Shown here: piece after piece, positions 3,340 to 23,108 of the stretch
How the letters are laid out: the number at the start of each line of letters is the position of its first letter
Numbering within the stretch: position 1 is the stretch's first letter
NCBI GenBank assembly: GCA_964510585.1
Contig: CAZECW010000004.1
Location: forward strand, 1-32,000
From: an uncultured archaeon
Lineage (GTDB): Archaea > Asgardarchaeota > Jordiarchaeia > Jordiarchaeales > Jordiarchaeaceae
Direction: 5' to 3'
DNA length: 32,000 nucleotides
Notes under the pieces: model-generated
Told to the model about the DNA's origin: nothing
What the model saw: the letters and a program-made list of their open reading frames with translations, nothing else
Databases searched by the model: none
Translations under genes and position numbers: made by a program

Positions 3340-4008
3340 ATGAAGAATGCAGAAAAATCCAGAGGGAAACAATTGAAGAACGACTTGGAAGAACATTTGG
3401 AGTTAGAGGCGGAACTGTACTCCTGCATAGCTACTCTGGATATGTTGGGTAAAAATTATGATAACGGTTTAATTGATGCCTCCACCTACAGCCGCCAAAT
3501 GAGAGCCTACATCCAAAAAATTATCGACGTACGTAAAAAGTTGGAAGAAAAAGGATTTGATCTATCCAAGTTTATAGAGCAGGAAAAAATCATAGAAAAT
3601 TATCCTAATGCAGCGGTGAAGCTGAGAATTGTTAAATCCGATGAAACTGTTATGAGACCAGAGGAAGAGATACCCTTAGAAATAGTTAAGTTTTCCCCAG
3701 CAAAACTAGCCACGGAAACAGCGGACCTTGTAACAAACTTCATCACATTAATAGACTGCGTCCAATTAGGAGACTACGCCCGGGTGGATAATATAGTCCC
3801 CATAATGGACGACATAATACTCCTCATGGAAAACTACACAGGACTGAATGACAAGAACTACTGGGTTTACAAAGAGATAACCGCTTGGCGTGACAAACTC
3901 AAAAACGAGCCTCCAGACCTTGTAATTGACTCCGAAGACGCCAAAAAGATAGAATATGACGCGGTAAGGTGGTTTAAAGACTTCCGCCAAAGAATAAGAC
4001 AATTATAG
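3340..4008 (+). CDS. vps28: ESCRT-I Vps28-like subunit
   Basis: AELYSCIATLDMLGKNY and NFITLIDCVQL resemble the Vps28 N- and C-terminal domain motifs. Directly downstream of the UEV gene. Confidence 0.85.
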   Translation: MKNAEKSRGKQLKNDLEEHLELEAELYSCIATLDMLGKNYDNGLIDASTYSRQMRAYIQKIIDVRKKLEEKGFDLSKFIEQEKIIENYPNAAVKLRIVKSDETVMRPEEEIPLEIVKFSPAKLATETADLVTNFITLIDCVQLGDYARVDNIVPIMDDIILLMENYTGLNDKNYWVYKEITAWRDKLKNEPPDLVIDSEDAKKIEYDAVRWFKDFRQRIRQL

Positions 4009-18929: not shown

Positions 18930-19850
18930 TTATACCCATTCTTGGAAAACAACACTGGAATGGGTATCAATGATATCCTCTATTTCAAAAATTTTCAGTA
19001 AAAGCTGGTTATAATGCCTAATATCCTTAACCCTAACTACAGCCATTAAGCCATACTCCTCGCCAGTCCGATAAATGCTACGCACCTCATCAAACTCGCA
19101 CAATTTTTTAGCCACGGAAAGATAGGCTCTGGGATCTACACTAATTTCTAAATAGAACTTTGCATCCAAACCAATGGCAGAAAAGTCCACTTTTGCGGTA
19201 TGACCAATAATTACATCTTCACTTCGAAGTTTGGAAATTTTCCTAGAAACTACGGATTGCGAAACACCCAGCCTCCTAGCCAACTCTGTTTGAGAATAAG
19301 GCATAGGACTGGTCTGCTGTCTAAGGAGGCTAAGCAGCTTCCAATCAAAATCAGAAACAGGGTAATAATCGATTTTCGAGTCGGGAACAACAAATCCAGA
19401 CTCTTTAAACGTGGTCAAAATCTCCACTAAACGATACTTCTTAAACCTTGAAACCACCATCAAGCGATCAAGCCCAGAAAGAAATGAAGAAAAATCCGAA
19501 GGAAACCTGAACCGGTACAAACCCAAAAGAGAAAACTCCCCCGAAATTCCATCCAACACTTGAATCTGAGGAAGACCTAACAGGCCCCTAACCACATCAT
19601 ACTCGTGAGGATTCGTCTTAACAAAAAGAAAAATACTACGATCAAATAATATCTTCAAGGGATTCAAAATAACAGAATACCCCCTCAAAACTCCCCTCTC
19701 AAACAACCCATTAATCACCCTAGCAACATAATTTCGGCTTTTCCCCAGCCTCTCCGCCAAATTCTTCACACCGAGAGAAGAATCCTTCAACAAAAGATTC
19801 AAAACCGCCTCTTCCAAAGCATCTAACCGCATAAAAACCACACAAAACAA
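18930..19850 (-). CDS. Tandem (double) Lrp/AsnC family transcriptional regulator
   Basis: Two HTH plus effector-domain repeats (LAERLGKSRNYV.. and ELARRLGVSQSVV..). Confidence 0.85.
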   Translation of the reverse strand: MFCVVFMRLDALEEAVLNLLLKDSSLGVKNLAERLGKSRNYVARVINGLFERGVLRGYSVILNPLKILFDRSIFLFVKTNPHEYDVVRGLLGLPQIQVLDGISGEFSLLGLYRFRFPSDFSSFLSGLDRLMVVSRFKKYRLVEILTTFKESGFVVPDSKIDYYPVSDFDWKLLSLLRQQTSPMPYSQTELARRLGVSQSVVSRKISKLRSEDVIIGHTAKVDFSAIGLDAKFYLEISVDPRAYLSVAKKLCEFDEVRSIYRTGEEYGLMAVVRVKDIRHYNQLLLKIFEIEDIIDTHSSVVFQEWV

Positions 19851-19949
19851 GCCGATTTAAAAGCAAATTATGACAAACAATATATATAAACTTTATAAGT
19901 TTACCCCACAAGAAGAAAAACAAAAACACCACAATGGGAGAAAAAAATT

Positions 19950-21320
19950 ATGGCACAAACACAAAAAGGAGATAAGTACGAAGTCAAAGACCTAAAACTA
20001 GCACCAGGCGGACGAGCAACAATCGAATGGGCAGAATCAAGAATGCCCGTACTTATGCAAATAAGAAAAAGATTCCAAAAAGAAAAACCACTCAAAAACA
20101 CCATAGTAGGAGCATGCCTCCACGTAACAAAAGAAACAGCGGTACTTGCAAAAACTCTAAAAGCTGGAGGAGCAGAAGTCTACCTTTGCGCCTCAAATCC
20201 CCTATCAACACAAGACCATGTAGCCGCGGCACTAGTAGAAGAAGGAATAAACACATTCGCTTGGAAAGGCATGGACTACGAAGGCTACTACCGAGCAATA
20301 GCCAACGTTATTAAAGGAGAACCGAACATCACACTAGACGACGGCGCCGACCTAGTATCAACCCTAATCAAGCTAAAAAGAGGAGAAACTGGCGAGGAAA
20401 TCAAAATAGTCAAGAAAATTCTCGGAAGCCGTACAGACTGGGCGGACAAAGTATGGGCCGGAGCCGAAGAGACCACAACCGGCGTAATCCGCCTCAGAGC
20501 CATGGCAAAAGATAACGTGCTATTATACCCAATTATAGCTACAAATGATACCCCCACGAAATGGGAAACATAAACACCACCCGTGTTTAAGCCCAAATTT
20601 GACAACTTGTGGGGAACTGGACAAAGCACCATAGACGGTATACTAAGAGCAACAGCAGACCTCATCGCGGGCAAAATTTTTGTAGTTGCAGGATACGGTC
20701 ACTGCGGTAGGGGTGTAGCGCTAAGAGCAAAGGGACTAGGAGCGAGAAGAGTCATCATCTGTGAAATAAATCCCCACCGAGCACTAACAGCCGCCTTAGA
20801 GGGCATGGAAGTAATGCCCATGAGCGAAGCCGCTGAGGTAGGAGACATTTTCGTAACCGCCACGGGATGCAAGAATGTTATAAATGCTGAACATATGAAA
20901 AAGATGAAAAACGGGGCAGTAATGTGTAACACAGGCCACTTTAATGTGGAAATAAATATACCTGATTTGGAAAAAATAAGCGTCAGCAAGAGAGAAATAA
21001 GACCACTAGTCGATGAGTACACACTGGAAGATGGAAGAAAAATCTATCTGCTCGCCCAAGGCAGGCTCGTGAATCTTGCATGTGCCGAAGGACACCCAAG
21101 CGAAGTTATGGACATGAGCTTTTCGGATCAGGCTTTGGCTGTGGAGTGGATTGTTAAGAATAAGGATAAGCTGTCTGGGATGGGTAGTGTGGTTTTGGAT
21201 ATTCCTGAGGAGATTGATAGGACTGTTGCAGAGTTGAAGTGTAAGGCTATGGGTCTTAGATTGGATGTTTTGACCCCAGAACAGGAAGCGTATTTGTCAG
21301 GTTGGGCTGAAGGAACCTAG
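19950..21320 (+). CDS. ahcY: S-adenosylhomocysteine hydrolase, join(19950..20567,20598..21320), 446 aa after splicing
   Basis: [27 protein letters not shown] and LAQGRLVNL. The two ORF-track pieces are in the same frame, and removing 30 nt restores [18 protein letters not shown]. Confidence 0.93.
20568..20597 (+). other. 30-nt BHB intron in ahcY mRNA
   Basis: Central helix UGGG/CCCA, bulges AA|A and AA|U, intron stem UAAACAC/GUGUUUA. Contains an in-frame TAA. Confidence 0.88.
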
Positions 21321-21469
21321 TTCTTACTTTCCTATTTTTATTTTTGTTTGTGTTTTTGGTGGCTTTTTGTGGGTCTTTGGCTTTTTGGTTTTTTGTTATT
21401 GCGGAGTTCAGTCTTTATTGGGGCTTTTTTCTCTTTAAAATTGATAAAGAAGCTCTAGTTGGCTTGCCT

Positions 21470-21989: not shown

Positions 21990-23108
21990 ATGGATACTGA
22001 AGAAAAGGTTCAGCGTGTCTTACGTGGCTTGAGTGAAGTTATCACTGTCGAGGATCTACGGAATTTATTTGAGGTAGACAACCACCCTAAGGCTTACATA
22101 GGTGTTGAGCCTTCTGGATAAACCTTTTAGGCTTTCTAGGGTTCCAGAATATTTCATTTGGGCTGGGTGGTTTGGGCTTGGAAGGTTCAGGATTTGATTC
22201 TTTGCGATGTGGATATGCATGTTCTCGAAGCAACTTGGCATGCGAAGATTAACGACAAATTTGGTGGAAACATGAATACCATACACACCTGTGCAAAGTA
22301 CATTGAACACTGTTTACAAGCGTTGGGTGTAGATATTAGCAGGGTTCATTTTCCAAAGGCTGAGGATCTTATGGATAGTTTGGATTATTGGGCGACAGTG
22401 ATAAACATTGCTAAAAACACTACGCTGGCCCGCATTAAGAGAGCTATGAGCATAATGGGCCGCAAAGTAGATGATGCGGAATCTGATTATTCAAAAACAC
22501 TTTATCCTTGCATACAGGTAGCTGACATCTTATACGCCGGTTTTAAGCTGTGTCTGGGCGGAACCGACCAGAGAAGAGCTCACATATTGGCGAGGGAGTT
22601 GGCTCCTAAGTTCGGCTTGGATTGGAAGCCGGTAGCTATTCACACACCTCTCCTCATAGGCCTAGAGGGATTATCAAGGATGGAGTTTGAGGATATGAGC
22701 GAGGATGTTTTAATGGAGGCCAAGATGTCGAAATCCAAACCTCAAACAGCAATTTTTATACATGATAAGCCAGAGGAAATTAGGAGTAAAATTTCTGCTG
22801 CTTTTTGCCCACCGAAACAGGTAGAATTCAATCCAATAATGGAAATAAATAGGCTTCTTCTCTTTTCCAGAGAAGGTTTTACTCTTCATGTAGAACGTGA
22901 GGAAAAATTTGGAGGAGATATAGATTTTGAGAGCTTTGATGAATTGAAATCTGCTTACAGCGCCGGTAATCTTCATCCTCTGGACTTGAAACGGGCTACT
23001 GCGGAGGCCCTCATTGAACTGTTGAAAAATGTTAGGCAACATTTTGAAAAGAATAGTGAAGCCCGTAACCTTTTGGAAACATTAAAAAAGGCTACAGTAA
23101 CCCGGTGA
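21990..23108 (+). CDS. tyrS: Tyrosyl-tRNA synthetase, join(21990..22119,22150..23108), 362 aa after splicing
   Basis: Exon 1 MDTEEKVQRV..KAYIGVEPSG joins to give PSGLFHLGW (HIGH motif). Also YPCIQVADI, GGTDQRRAH and KMSKS. Confidence 0.93.
22120..22149 (+). other. 30-nt BHB intron in tyrS mRNA
   Basis: Central helix CUGG/CCAG, bulges AU|A and AA|U, intron helix AACC/GGUU. The unspliced frame has three stops (TAA, TAG, TAG). Confidence 0.9.

Follow-up and report, generated by a model that had tools for sequence, protein, structure and literature searches.

The ahcY gene, which encodes S-adenosylhomocysteine (SAH) hydrolase, lies on the forward strand of a 32,000-nt stretch of DNA from an uncultured archaeon of the Jordiarchaeia; this whole stretch, referred to below as the window, belongs to contig C4 of an assembly of 3.78 Mb in 217 contigs that is 96% complete, and its DNA occurs in hot-spring metagenomes. 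A preliminary, sequence-only reading had described ahcY as split by a TAA codon carried by a 30-nt insert, and the reading frame behaves accordingly: it is open from the ATG at 19950 to the TAA at 20571-20573, then open again in the same frame to the TAG at 21318-21320. The features of the locus, with the basis of each in brackets, are listed below.

19950-21320, forward strand: whole ahcY gene (ORF frame and homology)
19950..20567, forward strand: ahcY exon 1, 206 codons, with the 3' end ...TKWE (ORF, Pfam and dN/dS)
20562..20565, forward strand: 5' arm UGGG of the central 4-bp helix, in exon 1 (MFE fold; invariant in six species)
20566..20568, forward strand: 5' bulge AAA, predicted cut after 20567 (geometry; the cut restores frame and motif)
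20568..20597, forward strand: predicted BHB intron of 30 nt (orthologue gap; congeners; insert of genome G010)
20569..20591, forward strand: inner helix h' (20569-77 with 20583-91) and its 5-nt loop at 20578-82 (fold; pairing in six species)
20571..20573, forward strand: in-frame TAA within the predicted intron, in the 5' arm of the inner helix (kept in 6/6 species)
20592..20595, forward strand: 3' arm CCCA of the central helix, at the 3' end of the predicted intron (MFE fold; six-species alignment)
20596..20598, forward strand: 3' bulge AAU, predicted cut after 20597 (geometry; junction)
20598..21320, forward strand: ahcY exon 2, 240 codons and TAG, starting with FDN (Pfam and dN/dS)

Exon 1 corresponds to positions 1-216 of the Pfam AdoHcyase profile (PF05221; E 2e-47) and exon 2, from its third residue, to positions 1-162 of AdoHcyase_NAD (PF00670; E 3e-56), the product scoring 203 and 188 bits, respectively, both above the curated cut-off. 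When the TAA was translated through in the query, the best matches in a collection of 5.8 billion proteins had 73% identity and were named Jordarchaeales and Promethearchaeota, and the collection held no full-length AhcY protein of the host genus. The best solved structure was PDB 7r39 (E 5e-140). Relative to this read-through product, all 14 aligned Asgard and TACK orthologues, as well as 7r39, lack exactly 10 residues between TKWE and FDN, which is the 10-codon gap that had been anticipated relative to intronless orthologues; orthologues retaining a 10-residue insertion in which a sense codon replaces the TAA were looked for and not found. In silico removal of the insert yields a protein of 446 residues in which the K-x-x-F-D-N hinge motif is intact. 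The lysine and aspartate of this motif, which the sequence-only reading had placed among the catalytic residues, are the counterparts of Lys186 and Asp190 in the mammalian SAHH, which indeed contact the substrate ribose at its 3'-OH and 2'-OH, Lys186 serving as acid/base (PMC4647836). No second copy of ahcY was found in the host genome or in those of its congeners.

The proposed fold comprised a helix of UGGG with CCCA, bulges AAA and AAU, and a 7-bp stem; both the helix (20562-65 with 20592-95) and the stem (20571-77 with 20583-89) are contained in the MFE fold of the site. The additional pair C20569-G20591 brings the inner helix to eight of nine positions paired, A20570/A20590 being the mismatch. 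The outer, exon-exon helix h consists of just A20560-U20600 and A20561-U20599 and, because it is limited to these two A-U pairs, the motif is a relaxed BHB (HBh'-like, with both bulges) that falls short of the textbook form. The topology is that of tRNA introns at position 37/38, each bulge standing 3' of a helix strand; scanning the window for tRNAs and Rfam families gave no matches. The overall folding energy of the site is ordinary (z = -1.5) and uninformative as a significance test. The in-register BHB geometry, by contrast, is unusual: when the insert was shuffled 2,000,000 times, the in-register 4-bp helix never appeared together with eight or more of the nine inner pairs, and it appeared together with six or more 201 times. 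Cutting after the second base of each bulge had been expected to join TGG GAA to TTT GAC, and deletion of 20568-20597 does so, giving AAA TGG GAA/TTT GAC AAC and restoring TKWE/FDN in the protein (slashes here and below mark junctions or predicted cuts). Owing to the A runs, three registers are equivalent for this deletion, with one of which the BHB rule coincides.

The insert is present at the identical site in six of six species of the genus, with lengths of 30, 30, 30, 29, 27 and 29 nt, and would, if translated, shift the frame in two of them. Its core, UGGGAAAC...GCCCAAAU (UGGG-AAA...CCCA-AAU), is invariant across the six species despite exon dS values of up to 1-3. The central helix is paired in 100% of cells and the inner helix in 92.5%, the latter reaching nine of nine pairs in two congeners, G001 and G002; the A/A mismatch of the host is replaced by A-U in G002 and by G-C in G001. 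Every stem change among the six species (such as U-A to U-G or A-U to G-U) is compatible with pairing, and the hairpin loop differs freely in sequence and length. Formal covariation in the stem was not significant, the single double-sided pair found among these six close sequences being equalled in 84 of 500 shuffles. Both exons are under strong purifying selection, with dN/dS relative to congeners of 0.05-0.10 for exon 1 and 0.005-0.045 for exon 2, at exon dS values of 0.26-0.45 to close species and of at least 1 to G001 and G002.

The ahcY gene of G001, the congener with a complete single-contig genome, contains three BHB inserts, two of which are absent from the other five species and are either recent gains or losses in those species. 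The ahcY site was searched in 201 Asgard genomes, and interruptions in this region were found only in the host genus, in genome G010 (genus g3 of the sister family) and in family f20. The additional inserts are as follows.

L007:2126-2181, reverse strand: extra insert of 56 nt in G001 ahcY (CCGG-AA/U...CCGG-AA/U; restores TTTG/IVR)
L007:1318-1508, reverse strand: extra insert of 191 nt in G001 ahcY (CCAG-UG/A...CUGG-UA/A; restores HPS/EVMD)
L025:2221-2243: insert of 23 nt in G010 ahcY, at a position identical to that of the host
L036:345-376, L037:345-376 and L038:346-377: inserts of 32 nt in ahcY of family f20 (genomes G050, G058 and G065)

The 191-nt insert of G001 is long enough to hold more than a hairpin. 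The insert of G010 shares the UGGG-AAA...CCCA-AAU core with the host genus and has an unrelated interior, and ahcY is intact, with 447 residues, in four genomes of genus g2 of the same sister family. The structure of the insert is thus kept in evolution while its sequence and its length (23, 27, 29 or 30 nt) vary. In family f20, the insert sits 6 nt downstream of the host site, has the form UUCG-AU/U...CGAA-AA/A, and its removal restores FD/NVYGTGQ. The f20 genes of G050, G058 and G065 carry another interruption directly upstream of the ETTTG motif.

Together, the results from the congeners, from selection on the exons and from the other lineages exclude a pseudogene, an artefact or a tolerated in-frame insertion as explanations for ahcY, and make a split gene very unlikely. 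In this last scenario, a 207-residue N-terminal fragment (...TKWET) and a 245-residue C-terminal fragment initiated at the GTG at 20583 (MFKPKFDN...) would assemble into the enzyme, with the hairpin playing a part in translation coupling or in the stability of the mRNA. The TAA and the in-frame GTG located 9 nt downstream are both kept in six of six species, and both halves of the gene are under purifying selection, as would suit two functional fragments. Nevertheless, the two codons are kept because they lie in the two helix arms, and no Shine-Dalgarno-like sequence precedes the GTG. A single hinge motif would be divided, its substrate-contacting K and D ending up on different fragments with 1 + 5 foreign residues added at the break; the 23-nt insert of G010 has no comparable in-frame GTG arrangement; G001 would require four ahcY fragments; and two separate polypeptides leave unexplained why cuts placed by the BHB rule restore the consensus exactly. 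We therefore grant the split gene a slim chance of being correct.

A marginally smaller chance attaches to removal or skipping of the insert without EndA and RtcB, through ribosomal bypassing (hopping) or another RNA-processing nuclease. Such routes are favored by the fact that neither an enzyme assay nor RNA links the site to EndA. Against them, the geometry is exactly that of an EndA substrate (4-bp helix, two 3-nt bulges, second-base cuts), and inserts ranging from 23 to 191 nt share one architecture within ahcY. Regarding bypassing in particular, the take-off codon GAA and the landing codon AAA differ, and to our knowledge no ribosomal bypassing system is known in archaea. Finally, an ahcY pseudogene or assembly artefact with an incidental hairpin, as suggested by an in-frame stop in a single-copy gene that annotation pipelines would call broken, has a negligible probability given that the insert recurs in the independent assemblies of six species, including a complete single-contig genome, and in several metagenome runs, that dN/dS is 0.005-0.10 on both sides of it at dS values reaching at least 1, and that a genome 96% complete has no second ahcY.

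The machinery that splicing would require is represented in the host genome. A profile search recovered two genes with the EndA domain (PF01974), in the regions of C157:27039-27287 and C126:19921-20181. The best PDB match of one is the catalytic alpha subunit of Aeropyrum pernix (3p1z_B; E 3e-45), with which it aligns gap-free through the N-terminal GQPL..KP stretch, which we take to be the crenarchaeal specific loop. The second paralogue has a serine at the position of the histidine in KEHS of Methanocaldococcus jannaschii EndA (1a79), presumably the catalytic one, and because of this replacement it looks like a structural beta subunit. RtcB (PF01139) is encoded by a single gene (578 bits). 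By these matches, the genome encodes a crenarchaeal-type alpha/beta EndA together with RtcB. Asgard archaea have been reported to possess an (alpha-beta)2 EndA with an L1 loop, an enzyme type that acts on relaxed motifs, and relaxed HBh'-like motifs have been reported to require (alpha-beta)2 or epsilon2 enzymes (PMC5829648). The putative alpha and beta pair fits the type reported for Asgard archaea.

The sequence-level predictions of the intron reading all held, namely the orthologue gap, the insert lengths, the core, selection, copy number and the presence of EndA and RtcB, and we consider it highly probable that the 30-nt insert of ahcY is a BHB mRNA intron spliced by these two enzymes. In the proposed mechanism, UGGG at the end of exon 1 would pair with the intron-terminal CCCA in the pre-mRNA to form the 4-bp central helix. 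The heteromeric (alpha-beta)2 EndA would then cut between 20567 and 20568 and between 20597 and 20598, after the second base of each bulge. RtcB would ligate the exons and probably circularise the excised intron. The ligated mRNA would be translated into the 446-residue S-adenosylhomocysteine hydrolase, with its T-K-W-E-F-D-N active-site/hinge motif intact.

Inserts similar to that of ahcY were found in four other genes of the host genome (G000).

C58, about 60-90 nt into the RtcB match starting at 3702 (L015): rtcB insert of 30 nt with an in-frame TGA
22120-22149 of the window (motif 22114-22152): tyrS insert of 30 nt with three in-frame stops, just 5' of the HIGH motif
C187:67020-67051 (L041:421-452): insert of 32 nt in pcm, encoding protein-L-isoaspartate O-methyltransferase (QTISAP/HM)
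C18:27688-27718 (L040:989-1019), reverse strand: cbf5 BHB insert

The rtcB insert has the form CCCG-AC/A...CGGG-AA/G, and its removal restores LPD/AHQGYGFPIGG. As rtcB encodes the presumed exon ligase, the ligase would be needed for its own production. The tyrS insert (CUGG-AU/A...CCAG-AA/U), whose removal restores EPSG/LFHLGW, is kept in six of six species with a length of 30 or 31 nt and has a different interior in G001. In pcm, the Pfam PCMT profile is matched at positions 3-59 before the insert and 61-208 after it. Because the cbf5 insert stands at the position described for crenarchaeal cbf5 introns, the predicted intron of this gene thus occurs in Asgard archaea too.

A genome-wide census combined BHB geometry with interrupted reading frames, using mirror geometry and decoy pairing as controls. 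It gave no excess on open-frame criteria alone (2389 real candidates versus 2467 and 1960 in the controls) or with a codon-usage filter (10946 versus 11240 and 8200), because chance motifs across ordinary gene boundaries swamp the signal. An excess was confined to the strict tail of the census (introns up to 80 nt long, inner runs of 7 or more pairs), which comprised 33 candidates versus 16 and 15 in the controls and includes ahcY, pcm and cbf5. We regard it as an evenly balanced proposition that mRNA splicing by EndA and RtcB is pervasive in intron-rich Asgard archaea, affecting dozens of genes per genome, with up to three introns per gene, and imposing a tRNA-type splicing step before translation.

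At the RNA level, assembled contigs were examined, and three RNA-labelled runs contain parts of the window. No contig from these runs bridges the ahcY junction 20567/20598. A contig of runs X14 and X15 spans the ahcY insert ungapped; these runs, labelled metatranscriptomic, are probably DNA. RNA run X19 covers ahcY at 20241-20471 and 20740-21229, that is, only the flanks of the junction. A 249-nt contig of the same run, with a depth of 25.8, reproduces 22120-22338 in circularly permuted order, corresponding to a circle of 219 nt. One end of this circle, 22120, coincides exactly with the base at which the tyrS intron is predicted to begin. No BHB was found at the other end, 22338; a second tyrS intron at 22338/22339 was considered and rejected, since no intron exists there in any of the five congeners. 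The circle agrees with an EndA cut at the predicted tyrS 5' site followed by ligation and may have arisen in this way, other origins being possible.

Independently of the insert, strand composition flips sharply within ahcY exon 2, at about 21050-21100 of the window. A+C account for 74% of third codon positions up to the switch and G+T for 81% beyond it, the flank at 19800-19950 is 51% A and that at 21300-21450 is 52% T, and GC skew passes from -0.27 to +0.27. By the bacterial rule, this looks like the polarity switch of a replication origin. In the complete congener genome, ahcY is located at 1.88 of 3.6 Mb. Bidirectional replication has been reported for related Asgard archaea (PMC11291895).

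The closest known system is the BHB intron of cbf5 pre-mRNA in Crenarchaeota (Watanabe 2002; Yoshinari 2006; Yokobori 2009, PMC2738675). Like the predicted ahcY intron, it is short, lies in coding sequence, splits the codons of a catalytic motif and is bounded by a BHB or relaxed BHB. Its hosts, like the present genome, have a heteromeric EndA, and in both cases some copies are in frame and others are not, with patchy gain and loss among relatives. Unlike cbf5, ahcY codes for a metabolic enzyme, its host is an Asgard archaeon, it has up to three introns in one species, and several more genes are split in the genome; furthermore, splicing of cbf5 was demonstrated by experiment, whereas that of ahcY is predicted here from sequence. 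In Jordiarchaeia/Freyarchaeia and Atabeyarchaeia, 92-95% of tRNA genes are interrupted, with non-canonical and multiple introns (PMC11291895; bioRxiv 10.64898/2026.10.13.758758), and no mention of mRNA or cbf5 introns was found in these two sources. These tRNA introns resemble that of ahcY in being short, BHB-bounded and repeatedly gained and lost, but their substrate is tRNA, whereas that of ahcY is an mRNA whose junction is constrained by the reading frame. Archaeal pre-rRNA BHB sites share the motif and the endonuclease/ligase pair, and their excised pieces are circularised; however, they release and circularise rRNAs, whereas removal of the ahcY insert restores a coding frame. In the literature searched, no description of Asgard mRNA BHB introns was found, and cbf5 was the only archaeal protein-coding gene cited with an endonuclease-spliced intron, a 2025 splicing-endonuclease paper included. 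The mechanism is known from cbf5, while the host gene ahcY and the Asgard phylum are new. The ahcY intron is likely one of a far greater number of introns, so far undescribed, in the protein-coding genes of intron-rich Asgard archaea.

Protein-gene BHB introns would therefore reach beyond cbf5 into central metabolism and show dynamic gain and loss in the closest prokaryotic relatives of eukaryotes; the phenomenon appears wider than cbf5 because two families share the ahcY intron, a third lineage has a nearby site and one congener has three. Annotation pipelines will label such genes as pseudogenes or split genes, so that SAH hydrolase, TyrRS and RtcB, among others, will be missing in error from metabolic reconstructions. 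Intron gain itself becomes testable, since two families have unrelated interiors at one shared site and a sister genus precisely lacks the insert.

For the host, whose sole ahcY copy is interrupted, SAH hydrolase can almost certainly be produced only if the mRNA is cut and rejoined, and gene expression may depend on tRNA-splicing capacity. Should mRNA splicing prove pervasive in these archaea, it would include the essential genes tyrS and cbf5 and the ligase gene rtcB, the expression of core metabolism would be tied to the tRNA-splicing machinery with rtcB caught in a self-dependent loop, and these organisms would be the first prokaryotes in which a protein enzyme removes introns from protein-coding genes in substantial numbers.
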